A DNA stretch of 64,000 nt from Malacoraja senta (GCA_038087875.1 CM075988.1:23500001-23564000); one strand, 5' to 3'. Positions 9,356 through 63,327 are shown, numbered from the stretch's first letter. Notes: generated by a model not told the origin, from the letters alone. Made by a program: numbers and translations.

Positions 9356-10061
9356 TATCTTCCCATCTCCTCCCCTGTCGGCTTTCCGCAGAGACCGCTC
9401 CCTCCGTAACTCCCTGGTCAATTCGTCCCTTCCCACCCGTACCACCCCCCTCCCCGGGCACTTTCCCTTGCAACCGCAAGAAATGTTACACTTGTCGCTT
9501 TAGCTCCCCCCCCCCCTTGACTCCATTCAAGGACCCAAGCAGTCGTTCCAGGTGCGACAGATGTTCACCTGCACCTCCTCCAACCTCATCTATTGCATCC
9601 GCAGCTCTAGATGTCAGCTGATCTACATCGGTGAGACCAAGCGTAGGCTTGGCGATCGCTTCACCGAACACCTCCACTCGGTCCGCAATAACCAACCTGA
9701 TCTCCCGGTGGCTCAGCACTTCAACTCCCTCTCCCATTCCGAATCCCTGTCTGTCCTGGGCCTCCTCCATGGCCAGAGTGAGGACTACCGGAAATTGGAG
9801 GAGCAGCACCTCATATTTCGCTTGGACAGTTTGTACCCCAGCGGCATGAACATTGACCTCCAATTTCAGGTAGCCCGCACTGTCTCCTCCCCTTCTCAAC
9901 TCACCCTCAGCCCTCTGGCTCCTCCTCTTCCATTCTTCTGCCCACCCCCACCACCCTACATCAGTCTGAAGAAGGGTTTTCGGCCCGAAACATTGCTTAT
10001 TTCCTTCACTCCTTAGATGCTGCCGCACCCGCTGAGTTTCTCCAGCATTTTTATCTACCTT
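9356..10061 (+). mobile_element. 5'-truncated Penelope-like element (Neptune-type): Cys linker, GIY-YIG endonuclease and terminal hammerhead-like motif
   Basis: CNRKKCYTC linker at ~9469-9495. FTCTSSNLIYCIRSSRCQLIYIGETKRRLGDRFTEHL (GIY-YIG). CTGAAGAAGGGTTTTCGGCCCGAAAC at ~9966. 12-bp TSD CTTATTCATACC (9344-9355, 10062-10073). Confidence 0.9.
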
Positions 10062-10719
10062 CTTATTCATACCGAATCCAATTTGAAGCATAAATGTTGC
10101 ATTCAAGTGCAAGTTAAATGACTCGCTACAGTATGCACCAGATTGCACAATTTCAAGCAGAAAAATGCAAAAGCTCCTTACCCCCTCGGTCGCTATGCTC
10201 ACTTGCAATTTCAACTCTCACCCAATGTTGGTAGCCCTGCAATAACACTCTTGACCCTCAACAATCCCCACTGTCCTGACTATTTAAGTGCCAATAACAG
10301 CAACTTAAAATACCCTTCCTGCACAAACTGCTGCCTGTGCACTAGTTTGAGCTGAAAACAGGATTTAGATTTACCAAAATTTGCATCAGTTCATTGTTTT
10401 AAACAGGAAGCATCTAGCAAGTGAAATAAAACATTTTTCAGAGTGAACCAAATTCAGCCTTGAATATGTCCAAAGTCAACCATAAAAACTGTCATGATTT
10501 AAATGAATAACCATCTAACAAGGTTATAACCAATATCTACACATATTATTGCAAAGTTTCATAAGTGAAATTACCAGGTTATAATCACTTAGTATTTCAA
10601 AGAACGTTATAAAAATATCAGGAAACCGTTTTTGGCAAGAAAGGGATTTCTATAAAGTATTTGGATTATTACATATTTTAATACGAGTTGACCTTATTGA
10701 CACCAATGTCCTGCAGCAT

Positions 10720-23913: not shown

Positions 23914-26900
23914 TTTTTTTTTAAATTGTTTTAATTTTTTTTAATTTTATTTATTAGAAGTACATTACATTATGGTGGTGCCTTTTTACAGGTTCCCAAA
24001 GTTATTTTAACATTCTTTGTACAACTTCCCTTTTTTTTAAAGAAAGAAATGAGAAAGAAAGAAGTAGTAAAGAGTAAAGGAAAGTCTAGTGAGTGTGAAA
24101 TAAAGAAAATAAATAATTAGGAAAGTGAAGCAGAAAGGATATTCTCCCTCGCCACAAGTCGATGCTTTTTTATATTCTTGATCATTTTTCGCCCATACCC
24201 AAAAATTTTAATTTTTACGATACTGTTGCACCACATGAATCCAAAAAGTCAATAAATGGAGATCAACTCGTTAAGAAATGGTCTTTTTTGTCTATTAGGA
24301 GGAGTCTCATTTCTTCCAGGTGGGCTGTTTCCAACATATTACCAATCCACATTTTGAGTGTTGGTATAGTAGCATTTTTCCAAAATTTAAGTATGAGTTT
24401 TTTTGCTGTTATTAAACCATAATTAAAAAATGAAATTTGGGATATATTTAATTTGTTCCCATCTCCTATTACTCCAAATATAATCATTTCAGTGTTAGGT
24501 TCCATTTTTATCTTAAATAAACTAGTGAATATATCAAATATATCACACCAAAACTTATGAAGTTTTGTGCAAGAAACGAAAGAGTGTGTGATATTGGTAT
24601 TTTGAGAAAGACATTTATCACAGATGGGAGAAATATTTGAATACAATTTATTCAATCTAATTTTTGAATAATATAATCTATGAAATATTTTAAATTGAAT
24701 TAAATTGTGTCTAGCGTTAATCGAACATTTATGTATATATATCAAATACTTTTCCCACGTTTCTTTAGAAATTTTTGTCATTAATTCTTTTTCCCAGTCT
24801 TCTCTAATTGCCTCTGTTGATGGCAATTCTCTGTTAAGAATACTATTATATAAATATGATATTAATTTTTGTGAGTCCGCCTTAATATTCATTGCTTCTT
24901 CCAGTGGGTCTATCATTATGCTCTGTAATCTTGGTATATATTTTTTCATAAAGTCACATATCTGTAAATATTTAAAGTATTGGTTGTTATTCAGATTAAA
25001 TTTTGATTTTAATTGTTGAAATGATAATAAATTTCCCATTTCATACATGTCACCCACCTTTTTAATTCCCAATCTTTCCCATTGTCTATATGTTTTATTC
25101 ATAAAAGATGGTTTGAATACCGGATTATTCACTATTGGTGTTAATGATGATAAGTTTCTTAATTTTAAAGTTAATTTTATTTGTTTCCAAATTCGAATTA
25201 TGTTATGTATAATTGGATTCTTCTTATATAATGTATTATTCAATTTTATCGGGGGAGAAGAGGATCGCTCCTCAATCGTACGGAGAACAATCCTCTTTCT
25301 CCATTCTTATCCATTCCATCTGTTGAGAAGGACAATCCAACCAATAAATTATATTCTTGATATGCACTGCCCAATAATAATATAAAAAATTAGGCAGTGC
25401 AAGTCCCCCTACATCTTTAGGTTTGCACAAATGGTTTCTTTTAATTCTATGTGCTTTATAGTCCCAAATAAAATTAGTAATATTAGAGTCTAATTTAAAA
25501 ATATATATATTTTGGTATATATATTGGTATGGATTGAAATAAGTATATTATTTGTGATAGAACTATCATTTTTATAGCATTTATTTTGCCAATTAATGAT
25601 AATGGGAGCGTTTTCCAAAATTTAATCAGAGCGTTCAATTTATTTAATAAAGGACTAAAATTAGCGTTAAATAATGATTTATATCTTCTAGTAACTTGAA
25701 TACCCAAATACTTAAATTTTTCCGTTGCAATTTTAAAAGGAAATTTTAATAGGTGGTTCGCTTTCTGGGGCTGTAATGACATAATTTCACTTTTATTCCA
25801 ATTTATTCTATATCCAGAAAAAGAGCCAAAGGCTCTATCATAAGGGCAAATAGCAGGGGTGATAAAACACATCCCTGCCTATTGCCCCGTGATAATTGGA
25901 ATTTTGGAGATAACATATTATTAGTTAATATTCTTGCCATCGGTTTATCATATAGAGATTTTACCCATCTAATACAATTATCTCCCATATTAAATTTTTG
26001 GAGTACTATGTATAAATACTGCCAATCTACCTGATCAAATGCTTTCTCTGCATCCAAAGATATAACTGATAAGTCTTCCTTTTCCACTTTATGTGAATAC
26101 ATTATATTAAAAAGTCTCAAATTATTAAATGATTGTCTTTTAGGTATAAACCCCGTTTGGTCCGGGTTTATCAATTTATTAATATATTTACTCAATCTTC
26201 TTGCTAAAGTCTTTGCTAAAATTTTCTGATCTGTATTTAAAAGTGATATAGCTCTGTACGAGCCCGGATCTTATAAATCTTTATCTTTTTTTGATATAAG
26301 CGTAATTGTAGATTATGCTAATGTTTCTGGTAATTTCTTTTCGGTAAAAGCATACGTGTATAATTTAAGTAATCGTGGGACCATTAACTCCTGAAATCTT
26401 TTATAAAATTGATTATTAAAACCGTCTGGCCCTGGTGTCTTCCCATTTTTCAGTTCTTTTATTGTTTCTCTTATTTCTTCACGTGTTCTGAGCTCCTAAT
26501 TCCTCTTGTTCTAAGATATCCAATTTTGGCAAATTACAATTATCTAAAAAATTTATAATTTTATTGTCTTCTATTTTAGTTTTAGATGTATATAAATTTT
26601 GATAAAATTGAGCGAACCTTTTATTAATGTCTTTAGGTAAAGTTAATAGTTCCCCATTCTCCGATTTGATTTTAATAATAGTTTTTTCCTTTTCTTGCTT
26701 CTTCAATTGTCGTGCTAGAAGTTTATGTGGTTTATCCCCAAATTCAAACTGTACTTGTTTTGTGATCTGAAATAATCTTATTACTCTTGCCGATAATATT
26801 CAATTAAGTTTAAATTTCAATAATGTAATCTTATTATGTTTATCTATAGTTGGGTCTTTTGCGTTACTTAATTCTAATAGTTTAATTTCCTTTTCTAACG

Positions 26901-28136
26901 TCCATTGTTCTGTCATATTTTTTTTTATTTTGAAAACTTTGATATGAAATTATAACTCCATGGATGAATGCCTTAAAAGATTCCCATAATAAAGATGGTG
27001 AAATACCTGGTGTCTCGTTTGTCTGTTTTAAATACTCGTAACCTTGTGAGTTATTAGCTATTTGTGTGTTAAATCTCCAAAAAGATTTTATACCTGGCAT
27101 TCCCTCAAGTTTTATTGATTTGTCTAAATATGAATCAATAACACAGTTAAAGTCCCCCCTAGTATTACATTTTGATAATTATACTCATCTATTATATCCA
27201 TAATTTTCTTTAAAACTTGGGGGTTATCAAAATTTGGAGCATAAATATTTATCAGAGTCAGTGGTGTAGAATAAATTTCTCCCGCCACTATCGGGTACCT
27301 TCCTTCTTTATCAGATATAGTATTCTTTAATATAAATGGTATACCTTTCCGAATAATAATAGCCATTCCTCTAGCTTTAGCAGTAAATGACGAGTGATAA
27401 GTTTGGCCTATCCAGTTTGCCCTCAGTCTCATCTGTGTTTGTAGTTTCGTATGAGTTTCTTGCAGAAAAGCTATGTCCACATTTAAAGATTTTAACTGGG
27501 CCAGAATCTTGCCCCTTTTAATGGGATCATTCGCACCCCTAATATTCCAACTACAGAATGTGAATCCTCCATTCTTTTGTTTCCTATTATCTTGCATTGT
27601 TAATTGGTTTTGGTGATTTTGCTTCATGTGGTGTAGTTAAGTACCTCAGGCTTTTGGGTATGTGGGTATCGCCCCATACTTCTGACGTTATTTTACCTCT
27701 CCTCCGTATATTGAACCTCCATGAGAAAAAGAGAAAAGTGTGTTGAGAAATAGTAAAGAGAGAATTTTTTTTGGATAAACCACATAAAAGTGAATACAAC
27801 AACAAAAAAAGTGAGTTTACGGTATCAAAAAGGTGATACCTTACATACAAGAAGCCATCTATAATGGCCAAAAATTGATTGACCTCCGTAGTTGGAATTA
27901 TACATTGAGCTCAGCCCCCTAGATACAATGTCATTTATGACTACATGCCGTTTCCTCTTAATATATCAACAACAACAAAATCATTAGAAAACATTTATCC
28001 GGTCAGGCCGAATAAAACAAAAAAAAGTTTCATCAATAGAAAGTTATCATCATCTATACTATTTCAAATATTCTCTTATGTACCCAGATTTTAAACCTTC
28101 CACGACTCTGTGATATTGAGCAAGCACCATAGAAGG
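23914..28136 (-). mobile_element. 5'-truncated L1 (inter-ORF region plus disrupted ORF2)
   Basis: APE start SWNIRGANDPIKRGKIL...AFLQETH. RT motifs DQTGFI, SLDAEKAFD, RGNRQGCVLSPLLF, FKYLGI. C-terminal CDKC...HSFVSC. Poly(A)-like tail. 16-bp TSD CTCTTGTTACATCTTC (23898-23913, 28137-28152). Confidence 0.92.
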
Positions 28137-35722: not shown

Positions 35723-35922
35723 NNNNNNNNNNNNNNNNNNNNNNNNNNNNNNNNNNNNNNNNNNNNNNNNNNNNNNNNNNNNNNNNNNNNNNNNNNNNNN
35801 NNNNNNNNNNNNNNNNNNNNNNNNNNNNNNNNNNNNNNNNNNNNNNNNNNNNNNNNNNNNNNNNNNNNNNNNNNNNNNNNNNNNNNNNNNNNNNNNNNNN
35901 NNNNNNNNNNNNNNNNNNNNNN
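35723..35922. other. Assembly gap (200 N)
   Basis: Run of N. Confidence 1.
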
Positions 35923-36702: not shown

Positions 36703-37197
36703 AAGGGAGGGGGAGAGAGAGGGGGAAGGAGACAGGGGGGAGAGAGAGAGGGGGAGAGAATGGGGAGAGAGGAGGGAGATGGGGGAGAGAGAGGGGAGGG
36801 AGAGAGGGGGGAGAGGGAGGGGGAGAGAGAGGAGAGGGGGAGAGTGAGGTGGGAGAGAGGGGGAAGAGAAAGAGGGGGTGGAGAGGGAGGAGAGAGGGTG
36901 GGAGAGAAGGGGAGAGGGAGGGGGAGAGAGAGGGGGAAGAGGGAGAGAGGAGGAAGGGAGGGGGGGAAAGAGAAACGGGAAAGAGAGAGAGAGGGTAGCA
37001 AAGAGAAAGAGGAGATAGAGACAGAGGAGAAAGAGGGGAGAGAGGGTAGAGAGAGCAAGGGGGAGAGTGAGGTGGAAGGGAGAAATGGGGAGAGATGGGG
37101 GGAGAGAGGGAGAGAGAAAGGTGAGAGAGAGGGGAGAGAGTGTGTGGAGAGAGAGCGAGAGGGAGAGAGAGAGAGAGAGGGAGAGAGAGGGGGAGAT
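36703..37197. repeat. G/A-rich low-complexity polypurine tract
   Basis: About 490 bp almost purely G/A on the + strand. Confidence 0.9.
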
Positions 37198-37797
37198 AAA
37201 ACAGTGATAAGAGATGCACCTAATTTATCCCCTAAAGACGTCCGCATAAAGCAAGTAGACTGACATGAAATTGGACATGTTCTTTAGATTAGGTTCATTT
37301 TGAGCGAATTAGAAGAAGTTCTGAACCATAGAATGGGCTGCAGATCAACCAATGATTAAGACAGCTGGTCGAAGTCTGAAATGTTGGAAAGAGAAACATA
37401 ACTTCTGGAAATGGATGGCAAGAGTCCATAGATCTTCAGGTGATGTCGGATCTCCAGGGGATAACGTCTCCAGAGATCCCAATATTCATAGGCTCTTGGA
37501 GAAGAATTAGGCCATTCGGCCCATTTAGTCTACTCCACCATTCAATCATGGCTGATCTATCTTTCCTTCTCAACCCCATTTTCCTGCCATCTCTCTATAA
37601 CCCTTGACACCCGTACTAATCAAGTCTCCAGAGATCTCCATGTTATGTCAAGTCACCAGAGATCTGAAGAATCCAGTCTGAAGAAGGGTCTCAACCCAAA
37701 ACGTCACCCATGCCTACTCTTCCAGAGATGCTGCCTGTCCCGCTGAGTTACGCCAGCGTTTTGTGTCTATCTTCAGACAATCTATTGACACAAAATG

Positions 37798-37933
37798 TTA
37801 AAGAAGGAACTGCAGATGCTGGAAAATCGAAGGTACACAAAAATGCTGGAGAAACTCAGCGGGTGCAGCAGCATCTAGGGAGCGAAGGAAATAGGCAACG
37901 TTTCGGGCCGAAACCCTTCTTCAGACACTTCCT
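37798..37933 (-). mobile_element. Short Penelope terminal-repeat insertion with hammerhead-like motif
   Basis: Reverse complement of the array-unit segment GTCTGAAGAAGGGTTTCGGCCCGAAACGTT...CAGTTCCTTCTTTAA. 15-bp TSD TATTGACACAAAATG (37783-37797, 37934-37948). Confidence 0.85.
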
Positions 37934-38219
37934 TATTGACACAAAATGGTTTTGTGAAACATTCCGGTATACATATCAAATATATTCAATGTTGAATATT
38001 ATTAAGCTAGTATGAAACAAATGCACAAACGCTTTTATTTAGCCTTGACATATTTATTTGATTAGGAAGAGCCCGTTTCGTATTCCTTCCACGCATCGCT
38101 CGCTGTATTCCTTTATTCACCGACTGACTATGGAGGCGACCAACGCCTGAGAGACTGTGCAACATCCGCCAGTCTGAAAGATGGCCATCGGACTGTAGCA
38201 GAGCTTGTGTCAGGCTGCA

Positions 38220-44220: not shown

Positions 44221-44353
44221 CTCTAGGTGCTCTGTGCCACCAGTCAATGACGTTTCAGCTTTGCCAAGTCCTGGTTTAAAACTTCAATAAACAAACATGT
44301 TTTGCTCCTTGTAAGCCCCGTTTGTCATCTTCCCCTCAGCCAGCAATGAACCA

Positions 44354-44448
44354 GTCTGAAGAAGGGTTTCGGCCCGAAACGTTACCTTTTTCCTTCGCTC
44401 CATAGATGCTGCTGCACCCGCTGAGTTTCTCCAGCATTTTTGTGTACC
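44354..44448 (+). mobile_element. Single hammerhead-bearing Penelope terminal fragment, same subfamily as the array, nested in an older Penelope remnant
   Basis: Nearly identical to the array-unit segment and ends at the same TTTTTGTGTACC. TSD AATGAACCA (44345-44353, 44449-44457). Confidence 0.85.
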
Positions 44449-44661
44449 AATGAACCATTCTACATTGATTCCTTGAATATCGTCTGCTTTGATCTGTCCT
44501 TTTCACACCTTACACTTCCATATCTCTAGTTTCCCTCTCCCCTGACTCCCAGTGTGAAGAAGGGCCTCGACCTGAAACGCCACCCATTCCTCCTCTCCAG
44601 AGATGCTGCCTGTCCCGCTGAGTTACTCCAGCTTTTTGTGTCTATCTTCGGTGTAAAGTTA

Positions 44662-46908: not shown

Positions 46909-47123
46909 TAGACACAAAATGCTGGAGTAACCCAGCGGGGCAGGCAGCATCTCTCGAGAGAAAGAATGGGCGATGTTTCGGGTCGAGACCCTTCCTCAGA
47001 CGTCTGAAAAAGGGCCCTCGACCCGAAACGGCACCCATTCCTTCTCTCCAGAGATGCTGGGTTACTTCAGCATTTTGTGTCTACTTTCGGTTTAAACCAG
47101 CATCTGCAGTTCCTACCTACACA
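46909..47123. mobile_element. Inverted pair of Penelope terminal fragments
   Basis: Minus arm 46909-47001, plus arm 47002-47123. Flanks TTAGAGTTCATGGA and TTAGAGTTCTTGGA (14 bp, 1 mismatch). Confidence 0.75.
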
Positions 47124-48822: not shown

Positions 48823-49742
48823 TAAGGATCTATGGCAGCCCAGAAATTGGATTTTTCATTTTCTTGGTGAACTAAACGTAACTGGAAAGCCCATTCAGAT
48901 CCCTTGTAACATATTTTAAAAGTAGAAGTCCCAGAGTAGGGAAATCGAGAACCAGGGGACATAAGTTTAATGTGAGGGGGAAAAAATGTAATAGGAAGCC
49001 ATGGGAGTACTTTTTGACACAAAGGATGGTGGGTGTATGGAACAAGCTGCTGGAGGAGGTAGTTGAGGCAGGTATTATCGCAATGTTTAATACACATTTA
49101 GATAGGTACATGGATAGGACAGGGACAAGAGTTAAACGCAGGCAGGTGGGACTAGTGTAGATGAGACATGTTGGTCGGTGTGGGCAAGTTGGGCCGAAGG
49201 GCCTGTTTCCACGTTATATGACTCTATGACTCCGTGCTTGAAATTACATTTAAAATTGGATGCGGATGATTTGTGTTAGTGCAGGATCTGCAGGTTTCCC
49301 AGTGGGGTCACATTCTTTTAGACCATCCGCCCACGAGGAACATGAGGGTCAGCCCTTAAATCTAAGGTAGGCTTTTTCCTACCTCCAGTCCCCCCCACTC
49401 TACTTTCAGTCTGAAGAATGGTCTGGACCCGAAACATCACCTGTTCCTTTTCTCCAGAGATGCTGCCCGACCCACTGAGTTACTCCAGCATTTTGTGTCT
49501 ATCTTCTCCAGAGATGCTGCCCGACCCACTGAGTTACTCCAGCACTTTGTGTCTGCCTTGGGGCTGTGCTACAGTTTAGCTGGGGCTCCGCAGTGTTGGG
49601 CTGGGTTGTGTGTGTGAGTGAATGTGTTGAGGCAGATGCAGGATCGACGTGTTGGGTGGGCTGCAGCCGATGGCAGAGAGGACTCAGCTTGGAGCCATGG
49701 GTGGTCTTTAAGAGGTAACTCATTGCTGTAACTCCATCTCAG

Positions 49743-49873
49743 CGTCGTGTCAGCAGCAACTAGCAACGACACAGGAGGAGAAAGCACAGATCACCAGCGA
49801 GAAAGATTCCACCATCAAAGAGCTGCAGATGAAAATAGACAACATGGAGACTGAATACGAGGCCATCCTCCAT
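49743..49873 (+). CDS. DRC12: DRC12/CCDC153 coding exon 5 (TSCQQQLATTQEEKAQITSEKDSTIKELQMKIDNMETEYEAILH)
   Basis: ctcag| acceptor, CAT|gtgagt donor, 131 bp, phase 1-0. ME..YE.ILH motif. Confidence 0.9.
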
Positions 49874-49945
49874 GTGAGTATCACCTGCCGGCCTGCAGGA
49901 TGTGCGGACCGGATATGTACTGACCGGGGTAATTGTGCTTATGTA

Positions 49946-50232
49946 GTTTAGTTTAGAGATACAGCGTGGAAACAAGCCCTTCTGCCCACTGAGTCCCACC
50001 ACACGCCCACCAGCGATCCCCGCACACTAACACTATCCTACACACACTAGGGACAATTTACATTTACACCAAGCCAATTAACCTACATACTGTACGTCTC
50101 TGAAGTGAGGGAGGAACCCGGAGATCTCTGACAAAAACCACGCAGGTCACGGGGAGAACGTACAAACTCCGTACAGACAGCACCCGTAGTCGGGATCGAA
50201 CCCGGGTCTCTGGTGCTGTGAGGCAGCAGCTC
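49946..50232 (-). mobile_element. tRNA-derived V-core SINE
   Basis: Reverse complement of the SINE consensus, with (CTAAA)n tail at ~49946. Confidence 0.8.
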
Positions 50233-50612
50233 AACACACCCAGAGTGCAGAATGGAAGACCAAGCTGTGGTTTGCATGAAGTGAAAGTTCCATATATTAA
50301 ATGAAACAGACCTTCTGGCCAATCTGATTACTGTCGTTCATGCTCCATACAATCCTCTTTCTCTTCTCTTGATCTCAATCTTTCAGCATATTAAACAATC
50401 CTTTCACCCTAAAAAAAGACACAAAGTGCCGGAGTAACTGCAGCGGATCAGGCAGCATCTCTGGAGAACATGGATACGTGATGTTTTGATTAGCGCCCTT
50501 CTTCAGATTGAGCCCCAACCAGTCTGAAGAAGGGACCCAACCCAAAACATCATCTACAAACTGATCAGTCTGTAGAAGTGGCCCACACCCAGCCACAATC
50601 ATACAATCATAC

Positions 50613-53600
50613 TCGTCAAGGTATGCCTACTTTGAAGAAGTTCTCCTCCTCTCTCCGGAGACTGTTCCACACCCAACTCGCTAACTGCCTTTTTTCCTTT
50701 CTTCTCCCCACCCCCTATCAGTCTGAAGAAGGGTTTCGGCCCGAAACGTTACCTATTTCCTTCGCTCCATAGATGCTGCTGCACCCGCTGAGTTTCTCCA
50801 GCATTTTTGTGTACCTTCGATTTTCCAGCATCTGCAGTTCCTTCTTTAACACTTTGTCTACTCCACTGCGAAATCTCGTCAAGGTATGCCTACTTTGAAG
50901 AAGTTCTCCTCCTCTCTCCGGAGACTGTTCCACACCCAACTCGCTAACTGCCTTTTTTCCTTTCTTCTCCCCACCCCCTATCAGTCTGAAGAAGGGTTTC
51001 GGCCCGAAACGTTACCTATTTCCTTCGCTCCATAGATGCTGCTGCACCCGCTGAGTTTCTCCAGCATTTTTGTGTACCTTCGATTTTCCAGCATCTGCAG
51101 TTCCTTCTTTAACACTTTGTCTACTCCACTGCGAAATCTCGTCAAGGTATGCCTACTTTGAAGAAGTTCTCCTCCTCTCTCCGGAGACTGTTCCACACCC
51201 AACTCGCTAACTGCCTTTTTTCCTTTCTTCTCCCCACCCCCTATCAGTCTGAAGAAGGGTTTCGGCCCAAAACGTTACCTATTTCCTTCGCTCCATAGAT
51301 GCTGCTGCACCCGCTGAGTTTCTCCAGCATTTTTGTGTACCTTCGATTTTCCAGCATCTGCAGTTCCTTCTTTAACACTTTGTCTACTCCACTGCGAAAT
51401 CTCGTCAAGGTATGCCTACTTTGAAGAAGTTCTCCTCCTCTCTCCGGAGACTGTTCCACACCCAACTCGCTAACTGCCTTTTTTCCTTTCTTCTCCCCAC
51501 CCCCTATCAGTCTGAAGAAGGGTTTCGGCCCGAAACGTTACCTATTTCCTTCGCTCCATAGATGCTGCTGCACCCGCTGAGTTTCTCCAGCATTTTTGTG
51601 TACCTTCGATTTTCCAGCATCTGCAGTTCCTTCTTTAACACTTTGTCTACTCCACTGCGAAATCTCGTCAAGGTATGCCTACTTTGAAGAAGTTCTCCTC
51701 CTCTCTCCGGAGACTGTTCCACACCCAACTCGCTAACTGCCTTTTTTCCTTTCTTCTCCCCACCCCCTATCAGTCTGAAGAAGGGTTTCGGCCCGAAACG
51801 TTACCTATTTCCTTCGCTCCATAGATGCTGCTGCACCCGCTGAGTTTCTCCAGCATTTTTGTGTACCTTCGATTTTCCAGCATCTGCAGTTCCTTCTTTA
51901 ACACTTTGTCTACTCCACTGCGAAATCTCGTCAAGGTATGCCTACTTTGAAGAAGTTCTCCTCCTCTCTCCGGAGACTGTTCCACACCCAACTCGCTAAC
52001 TGCCTTTTTTCCTTTCTTCTCCCCACCCCCTATCAGTCTGAAGAAGGGTTTCGGCCCAAAACGTTACCTATTTCCTTCGCTCCATAGATGCTGCTGCACC
52101 CGCTGAGTTTCTCCAGCATTTTTGTGTACCTTCGATTTTCCAGCATCTGCAGTTCCTTCTTTAACACTTTGTCTACTCCACTGCGAAATCTCGTCAAGGT
52201 ATGCCTACTTTGAAGAAGTTCTCCTCCTCTCTCCGGAGACTGTTCCACACCCAACTCGCTAACTGCCTTTTTTCCTTTCTTCTCCCCACCCCCTATCAGT
52301 CTGAAGAAGGGTTTCGGCCCGAAACGTTACCTATTTCCTTCGCTCCATAGATGCTGCTGCACCCGCTGAGTTTCTCCAGCATTTTTGTGTACCTTCGATT
52401 TTCCAGCATCTGCAGTTCCTTCTTTAACACTTTGTCTACTCCACTGCGAAATCTCGTCAAGGTATGCCTACTTTGAAGAAGTTCTCCTCCTCTCTCCGGA
52501 GACTGTTCCACACCCAACTCGCTAACTGCCTTTTTTCCTTTCTTCTCCCCACCCCCTATCAGTCTGAAGAAGGGTTTCGGCCCGAAACGTTACCTATTTC
52601 CTTCGCTCCATAGATGCTGCTGCACCCGCTGAGTTTCTCCAGCATTTTTGTGTACCTTCGATTTTCCAGCATCTGCAGTTCCTTCTTTAACACTTTGTCT
52701 ACTCCACTGCGAAATCTCGTCAAGGTATGCCTACTTTGAAGAAGTTCTCCTCCTCTCTCTGGAGACTGTTCCACACCCAACTCGCTAACTGCCTTTTTTC
52801 CTTTCTTCTCCCCACCCCCTATCAGTCTGAAGAAGGGTTTCGGCCCGAAACGTTACCTATTTCCTTCGCTCCATAGATGCTGCTGCACCCGCTGAGTTTC
52901 TCCAGCATTTTTGTGTACCTTCGATTTTCCAGCATCTGCAGTTCCTTCTTTAACACTTTGTCTACTCCACTGCGAAATCTCGTCAAGGTATGCCTACTTT
53001 GAAGAAGTTCTCCTCCTCTCTCCGGAGACTGTTCCACACCCAACTCGCTAACTGCCTTTTTTCCTTTCTTCTCCCCACCCCCTATCAGTCTGAAGAAGGG
53101 TTTCGGCCCGAAACGTTACCTATTTCCTTCGCTCCATAGATGCTGCTGCACCCGCTGAGTTTCTCCAGCATTTTTGTGTACCTTCGATTTTCCAGCATCT
53201 GCAGTTCCTTCTTTAACACTTTGTCTACTCCACTGCGAAATCTCGTCAAGGTATGCCTACTTTGAAGAAGTTCTCCTCCTCTCTCCGGAGACTGTTCCAC
53301 ACCCAACTCGCTAACTGCCTTTTTTCCTTTCTTCTCCCCACCCCCTATCAGTCTGAAGAAGGGTTTCGGCCCGAAACGTTACCTATTTCCTTCGCTCCAT
53401 AGATGCTGCTGCACCCGCTGAGTTTCTCCAGCATTTTTGTGTACCTTCGATTTTCCAGCATCTGCAGTTCCTTCTTTAACACTTTGTCTACTCCACTGCG
53501 AAATCTCGTCAAGGTATGCCTACTTTGAAGAAGTTCTCCTCCTCTCTCCGGAGACTGTTCCACACCCAACTCGCTAACTGCCTTTTTTCCTTTCTTCTCC

Positions 53601-53971
53601 CCACCCCCTATCAGTCTGAAGAAGGGTTTCGGCCCGAAACGTTACCTATTTCCTTCGCTCCATAGATGCTGCTGCACCCGCTGAGTTTCTCCAGCATTTT
53701 TGTGTACCTTCGATTTTCCAGCATCTGCAGTTCCTTCTTTAACACTTTGTCTACTCCACTGCGAAATCTCGTCAAGGTATGCCTACTTTGAAGAAGTTCT
53801 CCTCCTCTCTCCGGAGACTGTTCCACACCCAACTCGCTAACTGCCTTTTTTCCTTTCTTCTCCCCACCCCCTATCAGTCTGAAGAAGGGTTTCGGCCCGA
53901 AACGTTACCTATTTCCTTCGCTCCATAGATGCTGCTGCACCCGCTGAGTTTCTCCAGCATTTTTGTGTACC
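50613..53971 (+). repeat. Tandem array of ~12.8 x 263-bp Penelope-derived units, each with a hammerhead-like motif (retrozyme-like), flanked by a 7-bp direct repeat
   Basis: Exact 263-bp period (ORF track 50718, 50981 ... 53611). Only three substitutions noticed (51269, 52058, 52760). ATCATAC at 50606-50612 and 53972-53978. Confidence 0.95.
50721..50752 (+). ncRNA. Candidate minimal type I hammerhead ribozyme (copy 1 of 13, repeated every 263 bp)
   Basis: GU-CUGAAGA-A-GGGU(UUCG)GCCC-GAAA-C-GUU^AC: both core boxes, a 4-bp stem II with UUCG loop, palindromic ACGU stem III, NUH triplet ending at 50750. Caveat: stem I is only 2 clear bp. Confidence 0.6.
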
Positions 53972-54210
53972 ATCATACTGAAGGATCAAGATTCAAGATT
54001 CAAGAGAGTTTATTGTCATGTGTCCCAGATAGGACAATGAAATTCAGCACAACAGAACATAGTATGCATAAATAAATACAGAACTGATCAGTGTGACCAT
54101 ATACCATTGAATATATATATATACACACATAAATAAGCAGATAACGTGCAATGGGCTATTAATGTTCAGTTTTGTTTGAGTTGAGTTTAATAGCCTGATG
54201 GCTGTGGGGA

Positions 54211-54687
54211 TGAAAAAGTTCATTTAAAAGATAGACAAAGTACAAATTCTTAAGACCATACAAAGCTTTAATTTAACGTCTGACGGGTGTGAACTGAGAG
54301 ACCCAGAGGCAACAGGTTCTCACGTCTGAATCTCCAGCAGCACACACAAAGAAATACCAGAACACCGAAGCTTATATACGTACCGATATAAAACAATTTG
54401 CATGATAAAATGACAGAAAAACCATCATCCACCTCCAAATATGGAGTTGTTTTTCACTCTTTGCCAAAAGCCAGTTACCCCAATGGAATCCTCTGGGCCC
54501 CTTCTTATCTGATTAACCTCTTCAACTTACATAAAAAACTTGCAAGAGAGCTGCGAACTATTCAACTTAAAGGGAAAAAAAACCTGGCATGATAGGAGTT
54601 GTCCAAATCCCATCATGCATTACAATTGGCTCTTTACAACAGGAAAGCTTAAATATGGCAACAATCAATTAATAACTAACTCTTTCA
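54211..54687 (-). repeat. 3' LTR
   Basis: Minus strand TGAAAGAG...CTTTTTCA, with TATATAA and ATTAAA. Identical by eye to 55663-56139. Confidence 0.95.
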
Positions 54688-54716: not shown

Positions 54717-55211
54717 CTACAGTCCTTGGTTAGTACATAGTAAAGGCTTCAGACATTTCAGTACATAGATTAAGATAATGATCAGCAGTACAATAGATCC
54801 ATAATGTATTATTATTCCCCATATGCCTCCGAACATGCTAAATGGCCACCATTCTACACCCTTATTAAAGTTATGCATTTCCTCCCCTATCTCTGTAATC
54901 TTCTTTATTTCTGCAGTAATATGTGCTGCTAAATCTGTAATGTTAGAAGATTCATCAGGGATGTAAGTACAGCATTCACGCCCCATAATAGCACATGTAC
55001 CCCCTTTCTCTGCCAGAATCTCAGTAAGGTTAAGTGGTATTGTTATGAGGGGTATTCCTTCTCCACCATTATATGGATGAGCGTACACAACCAGCATACA
55101 TTTATTATTACGAAGGGCAAATTCAAAACTCATAAACAAAAACAGATTATTTCACCAAGTCCAGTCCATATGGGCCAACCCCAGAATATAAAAGAGGGTC
55201 AATAGCCCCAT
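54717..55211 (-). pseudogene. env: Internally deleted gamma-type env (signal peptide and SU start fused to TM), with one in-frame stop
   Basis: MGLLTLFYILGLAHMDWTW*NNLFLF...EGIPLITIPLNLTE-ILAEKGGTCAIMGRECC (ISD tail and CX6CC)...hydrophobic anchor GSIVLLIIILIYVL. TGA at 55152-55154. Confidence 0.85.
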
Positions 55212-55662
55212 TGTCCTTTTTTGGTTCTCCGAACTGTTTAAAGTCAATCAGATGAATCCAACGTGGTGATCTTCAATCTTCTTGGCGGTTGATGTTGTTG
55301 ATACCACTTGGTACAGTTCTGTTCAACACAGTTTTAATTCCTTCCGTCCCAATGCCTTATCAGTATGTAGTCTGACAGTATGAACTCGTCCCTGTGTTCA
55401 ACTGGTAGTGGTATCTGCACTTCTTGTACCTTAGAATGCAGACCTGGCAAGGCATCGGTTAATTGCTGTGTATAATAATTAGTTAATCACTGAGGGCCTG
55501 TAGGTGAAACTTCCACACGTGAGTCGCACCACCAGTGGGTACGTAGCCTGTGGTCACCCTCAGTCCATAGCATCCTTCCCACAACTCGCAGTCACCCAGC
55601 CCTGCGTCACCTGCAAATCTGCCAATGCCACCATCACATTGCATTACATCGGCATACGCCAA

Positions 55663-56139
55663 TGAAAAAGTTCATTTAAAAGATAGACAAAGTACAAATT
55701 CTTAAGACCATACAAAGCTTTAATTTAACGTCTGACGGGTGTGAACTGAGAGACCCAGAGGCAACAGGTTCTCACGTCTGAATCTCCAGCAGCACACACA
55801 AAGAAATACCAGAACACCGAAGCTTATATACGTACCGATATAAAACAATTTGCATGATAAAATGACAGAAAAACCATCATCCACCTCCAAATATGGAGTT
55901 GTTTTTCACTCTTTGCCAAAAGCCAGTTACCCCAATGGAATCCTCTGGGCCCCTTCTTATCTGATTAACCTCTTCAACTTACATAAAAAACTTGCAAGAG
56001 AGCTGCGAACTATTCAACTTAAAGGGAAAAAAAACCTGGCATGATAGGAGTTGTCCAAATCCCATCATGCATTACAATTGGCTCTTTACAACAGGAAAGC
56101 TTAAATATGGCAACAATCAATTAATAACTAACTCTTTCA
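55663..56139 (-). repeat. 5' LTR
   Basis: Direct repeat of 54211-54687 at offset 1452, followed on the minus strand by T-TGGCGTA. Confidence 0.95.
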
Positions 56140-57132: not shown

Positions 57133-57378
57133 CTGAAGAAGGGTCTCGACCCGAAACCTCACCCATTCCTTCTCTCCAGAGATGCTGCCTGTCTGTCCCG
57201 CTGAGTTACTCCAGCTTTTTGTGCCTATCTTCAGTGGAAACATCCTCCCCACATTCACTCTATCCAGGCCTATCCCTTATTTGTCTTCTTATTTTATCTT
57301 CTTTTCCCTGGACAGCTGTGAGATCGGGAGCTTGCAAGCAGTGGCCACTGACCTCTCTCCTCCTTCCCTTTGGTGTAG

Positions 57379-59173: not shown

Positions 59174-59688
59174 AGACAATAGACAATAGACAATAGGTGC
59201 AGGAGTAGGCCATTTGGCCCTTCGAGCCAGCACCGCCATTCAATGTGATCATGGCTGATCATCCCCAATCAGTACCCCGTTCCTGCATTCTCCCCATATC
59301 CCCTGACTCCGCTATTTTTAAGAGCCCTATCTAGCTCTCTTGAAAGCATCCAGAGAACCTGCCTCCACCGCCCTCCGAGGCAGAGAATTCCACAGACTCA
59401 CAACTCTCTGTGAGAAAAAGTGTTTCCTCGTCTCCGTTCTAAATGGCTTACTCCTTATTCTTAAACCGTGGCCCCTGGTTCTGGACTCCCCCAACATCGG
59501 GAACATGTTTCCTGCCTCTAGCGTGTCCAAGCCCTTAACAATCTTATATGTTTCAATGAGATGCCCTCTCATCCTTCTAAACTCCAGAGTGTACAAGCCC
59601 AGCTGCTCCATTCTCTCAGCATACGACAGTCCCGCCATCCCGGGAATTAACCTTGTAAACCTACGCTGCACTCCCTGAATAGCAAGAA
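59174..59688 (-). mobile_element. Young CR1 LINE 3' fragment
   Basis: Open frame QRRFTRLIPGMAGLSYAERMEQLGLYTLEFRRMRG...WNSLP, (CTATTGT)n tail. Confidence 0.9.
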
Positions 59689-60316
59689 TATTGAGTATTT
59701 ATTCCATTTTTTCCCCCCCAACATCTTTGTCTCAAAAATGTACAACGATTGACCATGTCACTGGTGGGCGACGTGCGTTGTGGTAACCACTCAATAGCCC
59801 GTTAAAGGTCATGGGTAATAATTGCAGCTAACCATTCAGAGAAGTGTGAACGAAAGCAGATAGTTTACATGTGCTGTATAAAAGTATGTGGGTCTAACCA
59901 CACATGGGGAGCTGGCACGTATCACCTCAATCAAATCATCTGATCATTATCAAAATGCAGTTTGAGGGACCGTACTCTTTATAAATAGGCTGTGATATTT
60001 CCTGCTGTTGCAGTAATCACTTGACTGGGTGTGAATCTCTCTGGGAAACCCTGAGCTGGTGAAAGATACACTACAGGCATGCAGGTTTTCATTTTGATTT
60101 TACCAACTGAATGATAATAGATAAGCAGAGATATAAAATGTAAATATATAATACCCGAAAAATGCAGACAAAGGCATCAGGCAGGGATTTAATACAGGGA
60201 CAAGTGTAAGGTCAGGTAAGCCTGGTTGAATATGCTGCTCCCTGCTGCACTGCCTGAGGTGCTGTGGCTAGTACAGTGTGACAGGTCCTGAACCAAACCA
60301 TTCAATCCTTGAAGAA

Positions 60317-62120: not shown

Positions 62121-62826
62121 ATGTTAAGGCAGTCTCCATTTTTATCTGTCCCTTCACCAGATATTTTATGATCGATAGGCAATGACTAGGCCAAGCAATG
62201 GATCCCACTCAGACTTTCAATGCCTTTGTTCACCGGCATTTCCTCAATCAGCAGCTTCATAGAACATTCATCATAAACCCGAGAGAGGTAGAGAGAGACC
62301 AGTGAATGTTTGACAGTGTCTCGTAACAGCTACAGTAAAACTGTAACAGTTTTATTCCTGTCCAGAGATTAACATGCAAAGTTTTCACAGACAGCAACAA
62401 GTCCCACTGCCCTTCACCCACTCCAGTCCCCAACCCTGGGCAAGTTTAATCAGCGTTAATCCTTTCCACTTTCCTCTGGGGAAGGGAACATTTGCAATAG
62501 CAGGGAGCGTTGGGGAGGGAGAAGGGGAGGAAGGAGGAGGGAGAGGGAATAGGAGAGCAGAAATCTAGGCCATTGGACTGGGGCTAATTCCAGCCCTTCC
62601 CCGTCCTCCAAAGATTCCGTGGAATTGGTGAGATTCTTTCTTTAAACAACTGAAAGATTTCGCCCCTGGAGGATGGAGAGAGGGTGGAGACCTCTGCTCC
62701 TGATGAGGGATGAGGGTGATGAAGGAGGCCGAGCCTGCTTGGACGCAGAGAGGATGATTCCACTAGTTGGAGAGTCTAGGACCAGAGGCCGTAGCCTCAG
62801 AATAATCGGACATACCTTTAGAAATG

Positions 62827-63040
62827 TTTAAGAAAGAACTGCAGATGCTGGAAAAATCGAAGGTGGACAAAAATGCTGGAGAAACTCAGCGGGTGAGGCA
62901 GCATCTATAGAGAGAAGAAATAGGCGACGTTTCGGGTCGAAACCCTTCTTCAGACTGGTCTTGACCCGAAACGTCGCCTATTCCTTCTCTCCATAGATGC
63001 TGCCTCACCCGCTGAGTTTCTCCAGCATTTTTGTCTACCT
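62827..63040. mobile_element. Inverted pair of Penelope terminal fragments inserted in a CR1 remnant
   Basis: Minus arm 62827-62956, plus arm ~62957-63040. Perfect 14-bp TSD TACCTTTAGAAATG (62813-62826, 63041-63054). Confidence 0.85.
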
Positions 63041-63327
63041 TACCTTTAGAAATGAGATGAGGAGGAATTTCTTTAGTCAGAGGGTGGTGAATCTGTGAAT
63101 TCTGCTCCTGTAACTTCTGAACCTATGCTTTTGGGGGAAACCCGTGCCTTTACACCCAATGTTTTCCATTCTATTGCTTGTTTCCTTCCCCAACAAAGCG
63201 CTTGTCAAGTTTCAGAAGATCAATCGGTTTGTCTGTATAAACTCACACTCCAACCTCTCCCCAGTCGGCCCTTCTCAGTGAACTGGTCGGAGGTGAAAGA
63301 GACAGCGTCGCTCAGTGTAGACGGGGA

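Follow-up and report, generated by a model that had tools for sequence, protein, structure and literature searches.

A TSD-bounded tandem array of a hammerhead-bearing unit in the skate Malacoraja senta, probably inserted by a Penelope-like element enzyme

Non-LTR retrozymes, i.e. retrozymes without long terminal repeats (LTRs), are built of tandem units, each 150-450 bp long and with a type I hammerhead, and are bounded by target-site duplications (TSDs) of more than 4 bp (PMC7229834). In the published model, target-primed reverse transcription turns a circle into tandem cDNA, with Penelope-like elements (PLEs) as the likely helpers (PMC7229834; PMC7761336). A 2026 preprint derives retrozymes from the pseudo-LTRs (pLTRs) of PLEs, leans to the insertion of monomers followed by local amplification, and describes the mobilisation mechanism as still to be elucidated (bioRxiv 10.64898/2026.07.22.740005). 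The origin of the hammerhead tandem repeats of animals is debated between one step from circle to cDNA (PMC7229834) and monomer insertion with local amplification (bioRxiv 10.64898/2026.07.22.740005). Retrozymes were present in the single chondrichthyan sampled for that preprint, whose supplementary tables may already list the family described here. Head-to-tail multicopy insertions of non-autonomous PLEs have been noted (PMC8557442), while de novo PLE insertions have been reported as short, with no de novo multimer shown in the accessible part of that report (bioRxiv 10.1101/2022.05.23.493040). Here, we describe a tandem array of a 263-bp unit in a 64,000-nt stretch of the genome of the skate Malacoraja senta (GCA_038087875.1 CM075988.1:23500001-23564000; hereafter the window, in whose coordinates all positions are given; unit positions 1-263 are counted from the array start). 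The locus belongs to a known element class, the non-LTR retrozymes, for which the rolling reverse transcription model was published in 2020 (PMC7229834), and the skate unit is a new member. A literature search, with Repbase and most subscription papers outside it, turned up neither an account of this unit nor direct proof that a multimer was made in one event.

The skate unit shares with non-LTR retrozymes the tandem arrangement of units of 150-450 bp (at least two consecutive ones; here 263 bp x 12.77), a GC content below 50% (48%), one type I hammerhead per unit and a TSD longer than 4 bp (7-8 bp) (PMC7229834; PMC7761336). It also shares the homology to a PLE pLTR and the lack of enzyme coding capacity; it has no protein-coding capacity and no LTRs (the primer binding site and polypurine tract were not searched separately). 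Its hammerhead is of the minimal PLE type, whereas the retrozymes described in 2020 carry the canonical one; the 2026 screen takes both. Furthermore, the skate unit seems to keep an open reading frame (ORF) start across an internal deletion rather than a pLTR alone, and it is known here from sequence, in contrast to retrozymes with circular RNA expression. With Neptune PLEs and their partial pLTR tandems the skate family has in common a minimal hammerhead in the pLTR, an optional tail of 30-40 bp and 5' truncation (PMC8557442; PMC4209133), as well as TSDs of variable length (7-15 bp in the skate), inverted pairs and, in the fragment of a presumed helper, a CX2-5CxxC linker before the GIY-YIG domain (PMC8557442). 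The partial tandems of Neptune PLEs have a 3-kb unit, unlike the non-coding 263-bp unit repeated 12.77 times in the skate (PMC8557442). The Poseidon element PAc of Anolis carolinensis also has two internal reverse transcriptase (RT) starts downstream of the hammerhead that define a tail, and insertions that span the uncut ribozyme site (PMC11167929). However, it belongs to another clade, its ATG is part of the hammerhead and its RT initiates within the ORF (PMC11167929), whereas in the skate unit the cut site is followed by the ATG about 135 nt further downstream, and both 3' ends come before this ATG. The non-autonomous Chlamys PLEs of Chlamydomonas, MRC1 among them, are also comparable but come from a green alga and a clade with an N-terminal endonuclease, most Chlamys elements being without a hammerhead (PMC8557442).

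The array runs head to tail on the plus strand from 50613 to 53971, over 3359 bp, and consists of 12 full units of 263 bp plus unit 1-203 (12.77 units, a copy number taken from the assembly alone). It begins at unit 1, stops at unit 203 and contains three substitutions and no indels (homogeneity 99.9%). Unique sequence flanks it directly, and ATCATAC stands immediately to its left (50606-50612) and right (53972-53978). Length, unequal phases and flanking repeat were all given correctly by the original prediction, which had been made from the window alone. Among 200,000 random position pairs from the window, the chance of a flanking duplication of at least 7 bp, with 2 bp of slack on each side, was 0.0018. 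The duplication stretches one base further right to the 8-bp ATCATACT (left copy, ATCATAC(T), 50606-50613; right copy, 53972-53979; both plus strand), which gives a TSD of 7-8 bp, or of 6 bp if both the last C and the T are assigned to the element. These two bases of the left copy also match the element, a 2-nt CT microhomology at the 5' junction, and this match between target and element is the source of the ambiguity in TSD length that had been mistakenly ascribed to a short repeat in the left flank.

The 3' end of the array recurs in other members of its pLTR family, of which 20 further copies were found in the window. Their 3' ends, taken from local alignments and approximate in old copies, lie at unit 200-216 in 11 copies, at 228-245 in eight and at 121 in one. 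The single 3' end once proposed for the family is thus replaced by two classes about 38 nt apart, the array stopping at the first; the family shows the optional 30-40-bp tail of PLEs, and by analogy its end classes would match the two internal RT starts of these elements. TSDs were identified for three of the 20 copies. The closest counterpart of the array end is a young pLTR-only monomer on the plus strand (44344-44457 including TSDs; unit ~109-203, 99% identical), with a TSD of up to 10 bp (44344-44353 / 44448-44457) and the short 3' end at 203; the statement that the array ends exactly as this monomer (44354-44448) does was borne out. The second is the copy at 37926, a young pLTR-only monomer on the minus strand (37783-37948; unit ~109-241, 98% identical), with a 15-bp TSD, seven extra nucleotides at the 5' junction and the long 3' end, and the third, a pLTR-only monomer at 57133, has a TSD of 13 bp and ends at unit 206. 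Taken together, the TSD, the end position and the family context make it very probable that the array was inserted by target priming with a PLE enzyme. On the 5' side, ten of the 20 copies start at unit 106-111, just upstream of the hammerhead and about 30 nt before the predicted cut; this cluster could arise where transcription begins or where RT halts at the ribozyme.

A relative of the presumed helper is preserved on the plus strand at 9357-10062, as the decayed 3' part of a probably Neptune-type PLE with an RT-side remnant, linker, GIY-YIG domain, 3' untranslated region (UTR) and hammerhead pLTR. The linker (CX4CX2C, 9469-9495) precedes the GIY-YIG frame (9504-10016) and fits the CX2-5CxxC pattern; linker and GIY-YIG suggest the assignment to Neptune, the linker being common to Neptune and Nematis PLEs (PMC8557442). 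The GIY-YIG frame matches PF01541 with E=0.00041 and 21 bits, just under the curated cutoff of 22.6, and has 27 homologues in skates and rays (best E=9e-45), the closest being proteins of Rhinoraja, Leucoraja, Mobula and Hypanus with 64-80% identity. The 3' end of the fragment aligns to unit 82-206, with 93% identity over aligned columns.

The unit itself is, judging from its sequence, most likely an internally deleted Neptune-type PLE of batoid fish. In copy 1, on the plus strand, unit 1-77 (50613-50689) holds the putative end of a 5' UTR and, starting with the ATG at 50623, about 22 codons that presumably represent the ORF start of the parent. The putative deletion junction (unit 77/78, 50689/50690) is followed by a pyrimidine-rich stretch (unit 78-108, 50690-50720) that can be aligned with the 3' UTR downstream of the GIY-YIG frame 9504-10016. 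Next come the minimal type I hammerhead motif (unit 109-140, 50721-50752; in every copy), with its predicted cut after 50750, and the body of the pLTR (unit 141-203, 50753-50815), which reaches to the first 3' end of the family, a likely first RT start at which the array ends in copy 13. The remainder (unit 204-263, 50816-50875) comprises the optional tail to about unit 241, the likely second RT start, and then the link into the ORF start. We infer that unit 1-77 represents the 5' UTR and ORF start of the parent and unit 78-108 its 3' UTR, the rest of the ORF having been deleted. In a sequencing run of the same species (X1), eight contigs track the unit to 50689 and then depart into other sequence; there, as judged by eye, the ATG frame stays open for about five supported codons and encodes P-x-x-V-x-P, as found near the start of the 902-aa PLE protein P0022. 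Within the unit, the ATG at unit 11 opens a frame of 49 codons that ends in a stop. This 49-aa frame had no homolog (five candidates, none with E<=10), blastx of the unit against the 27 GIY-YIG homologue proteins gave nothing below E=0.49, and there is no ORF of at least 120 aa anywhere in the array. The minimum free energy (MFE) of the circular unit was unremarkable (z = -1.8, 100 shuffles).

The assignment of a hammerhead is based on motif and literature, the minimal type I hammerhead of PLEs being defined by its motif in PMC4209133. Unit 109-140 contains the core CTGAAGA, an extra A before a 4-bp stem II, G10.1-C11.1 and GAAA, with the predicted cut after unit 138. Where helix III would be there is a palindromic ACGT, which can pair only between two copies (duplex, -5.5 kcal/mol). 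The core is intact in 11 of the 13 array copies, G12 being mutated in copies 3 and 6. An alignment of 14 copies has the proposed pairs formed in 86% of cells, compared with 10-48% in slid controls; covariation (0.135) was not above that of shuffles (329 of 500 at least as high), and the changes in helices I and II are one-sided only. The motif MFE ranges from -5.9 to -7.2 kcal/mol, yet the MFE fold differs from the hammerhead fold. The 2026 screen used a complete type I hammerhead, canonical or minimal, with a motif MFE below -5 kcal/mol (bioRxiv 10.64898/2026.07.22.740005); the skate motif falls within this definition, and two copies fall outside the stricter wording of its Fig. 1 legend (all repeats). 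Rfam at gathering thresholds gave no match in the window, and for two units only three chance lncRNA matches. Its features fit a minimal type I hammerhead, which makes the motif a candidate ribozyme. In a JGI protein scan, 22 PLE loci with 35-71% protein identity were found, 14 of them with hammerhead-like motifs; none has a unit-like array, and DNA similarity to the unit was limited to one locus with a weak match (E=0.64). Loci L002-L020 of these metagenomes, probably host animal DNA, carry, about 110 nt beyond the GIY-YIG match, a hammerhead that shares the CTGAAGAAGG...GAAACGTC core. The JGI metagenomes contained no match to a 39-nt piece of the unit.

Twenty-two sequencing runs were listed, and four of them (X1, X2, X15 and X22) were compared with 49300-50875, i.e. 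the left flank and one unit. Two unique-flank contigs of X1 are identical to the window along 128 and 301 bases; this run is possibly the assembled sample and hence no independent support. X2 is from another organism and contains the left flank with 23 differences in 330 bases, and it also covers 50206-50434. At 50675, a different letter occurs in the whole X2 depth and in all nine X22 reads, and in no X1 sequence. The exact unit therefore seems confined to the species of the window among the runs compared (contigs show presence, not absence), which suggests that the insertion is younger than the split from the organisms of X2 and X22. The depth of X1 over unit 60-64 is 57,000-98,000, against 34-43 on unique flank contigs; this suggests an abundant element family in the species, gives no copy number and mixes parent and mini-element. 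The joint 263/1 is present in all four runs (11 contigs in X1, 10 in X2, three in X15 and 24 reads in X22), and polyA RNA reads of a relative (X22, a polyA-selected library) cover the unit on both strands, 24 of them crossing the joint. The joint was rejected as proof of tandems or circles, because full-length elements would also contain it as the presumed passage from pLTR to ORF.

How, then, was the array made? It would have begun with an internal deletion that fused the ~22 initial codons of the ORF with the 3' UTR and left the two pLTR hammerheads 263 nt apart. The unit would have been transcribed as tandem RNA, left intact or else cleaved by hammerhead dimers and circularized at 263 nt. 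A helper Neptune GIY-YIG endonuclease would then have nicked the target and RT would have started inside the RNA at its usual site, unit 203, a step supported by the TSD and the end position. From there, RT may have continued for about 3.3 kb over 12 unit boundaries, roughly one full element length (the array is close in length to the ORF of the 902-aa PLE protein P0022), and halted at phase 1, where two nucleotides match the target, with second-strand cleavage 7-8 nt away producing the TSD. Three CpG transitions are seen to have followed in the DNA. The passages over the hammerhead site are identical in 13 of 13 cases, as are those over the putative deletion junction. A circular or already tandem template is needed in every model, because even a 1.77-mer (unit 1-263 plus 1-203, 466 nt) crosses the putative junction twice, while RNA from the 5' end of the monomers yields only 360 nt. 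On balance, we lean towards the view that the array represents a single insertion of a non-autonomous mini-element of the non-LTR retrozyme type, from a Neptune-clade PLE, and that most copies arose in one event. Within this reading, a monomeric circle as template is a tentative proposal, and a linear uncut multimer transcribed from a source array is slightly more doubtful still.

The same target-primed insertion may instead have delivered a short tandem of 1.77 to about four units, which unequal crossover or gene conversion then extended to 12.77 with ends and TSD intact, an explanation to which we give appreciable weight without thinking it probable. The TSD and the non-integer length are blind to the number of copies at insertion, because both survive unequal crossover unchanged. 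The array has three variants, G>A at unit 131 in copies 3 (51269) and 6 (52058), which alters G12 of the hammerhead core, and C>T at unit 44 in copy 9 (52760), all in plus-strand terms. All three are CpG transitions, though CpG bases make up only 256 of the 3359; they arose at the DNA level, a history that suits later expansion, and they are unable to separate the one-event and expansion models. A trimer circle was rejected as template, as the variant seen in copies 3 and 6 is missing from 9 and 12. The sharing of G131A by these two copies is slightly more natural after duplication or conversion of DNA; however, it is also explained by recurrent mutation, since independent hits have P = 0.145 if CpG rates are equal and as much as 0.35 if they are uneven, and two of 13 other aligned family copies carry a mutation of this G. 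Blocks of variants shared among neighbouring copies are absent, and at least three net gains would be needed while a loss to a 0.77-mer was also open. Time was available: no non-CpG change in 3103 array bases bounds the divergence at 0.00097 (95%), which at the epaulette shark rate of 7e-10 per generation (PMC10587355), borrowed from another lineage, allows up to ~1.4 million generations for a change in copy number. The 2026 preprint also favours local amplification and reports at most seven units in 75% of families (bioRxiv 10.64898/2026.07.22.740005).

Besides the shared G131A and the time available, several points weigh against most copies having come from one event, and against a circle in particular. 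No circle, no cleavage and no empty site have been observed in the sequence data; no loose end at 50612 occurs among the matches listed (with 3681 others besides), and the flank in the relative reaches at least 50434. In predicted ensembles of circle and dimer, stem II has a pairing probability of at most 0.002. In the anole PLE, uncut RNA is the main substrate (PMC11167929), and eight of nine Xenopus retrozyme dimers were without cleavage in vitro (bioRxiv 10.64898/2026.07.22.740005). None of the 20 family copies begins at the predicted cut site, and with starts clustered at unit 106-111 instead, the template of even the monomers was probably RNA that had stayed uncut, or had been re-closed, at this site. 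The same observation counts against RT having jumped twelve times end to end between linear, hammerhead-cut monomers. Such changes of template do occur in PLEs, as partial tandems and inverted joins show (PMC8557442), and the window contains inverted pairs. All 13 cut-site passages are identical, with no indel or added base, which disfavours repeated jumps and leaves them with hardly any probability. End-to-end template jumps are usually imprecise, as work on R2 has taught. Only a little less improbable is that the insertion is real and its copy number and homogeneity were shaped by assembly or polishing. In favour of this are the 99.9% homogeneity and the fact that no listed sequencing record spans even 49300-50875, the runs having been compared with the left flank and one unit only. 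Yet three copy-specific variants were kept, all at CpG (P ~0.006 under uniform change, counting two independent events), and the nearest scaffold gap, 200 N, lies at 35723-35922, where it adjoins a GA-rich low-complexity tract (36707-37196). Of the rolling-circle origin initially claimed, one target-primed insertion by a Penelope-type RT/GIY-YIG enzyme, from its usual 3' site and on a circular or tandem template, is supported; the some 13 turns in one event stay a hypothesis. Neither the minimal hammerhead nor the probable internal deletion, which place the unit among the non-LTR retrozymes, had been part of that claim. That Neptune RT went ~13 times round one hammerhead-made 263-nt circle, in a family with many young TSD-bounded loci, fixed 3' ends and free 5' phase, is a doubtful proposition. 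The alternative named at the time, a 1.77-unit insertion followed by unequal crossover, survives as a rival and likewise needs the circular or tandem template.

Further pLTR copies surround the array. An older inverted pair of hammerhead pLTR fragments lies 50 bp to its left (50419-50556) and is partly covered by contigs of the relative, and other inverted pairs occur at 46912-47123 and 62822-63041. At 37674-37926 the young minus-strand monomer directly follows an older pLTR copy of the plus strand in tail-to-tail orientation, and the copies at 44354 and 44554 are neighbours; this clustering hints at a target preference. An old pLTR copy contains a 54-bp tandem duplication (49450-49554), showing that pLTR parts are duplicated in this family at the DNA level or by RT slippage. 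The window also holds unrelated elements. Starting 240 bp right of the array, identical direct repeats of 478 bp (54210-54687 and 55662-56139; 478/478) with a 4-bp flanking duplication enclose ~1 kb, in which a 144-aa frame (54717-55151, minus strand) resembles an env transmembrane protein by eye and has no Pfam match; the pair looks like a young, small, non-autonomous LTR element. Decayed non-LTR elements on the minus strand are represented by APE endonuclease and RT fragments (24263-27636) and, labelled by eye, by RT-like frames (1031-2588) and a CR1-like end (59327-59698).

The locus alone proves neither rolling reverse transcription nor local amplification. With its sharply defined TSD, a 3' end that coincides with a known type of RT start, few mutations and an apparently abundant family, it is a useful test case for the two, and the anatomy of the unit suggests a concrete route from PLE to retrozyme via internal deletion. 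If 13 rounds on one circle, at many such loci, proved true, the skate would provide genome-scale proof from a vertebrate of the rolling step in the retrozyme cycle, together with a retrozyme traceable to its parent PLE through an internal deletion that left the ORF start in place.

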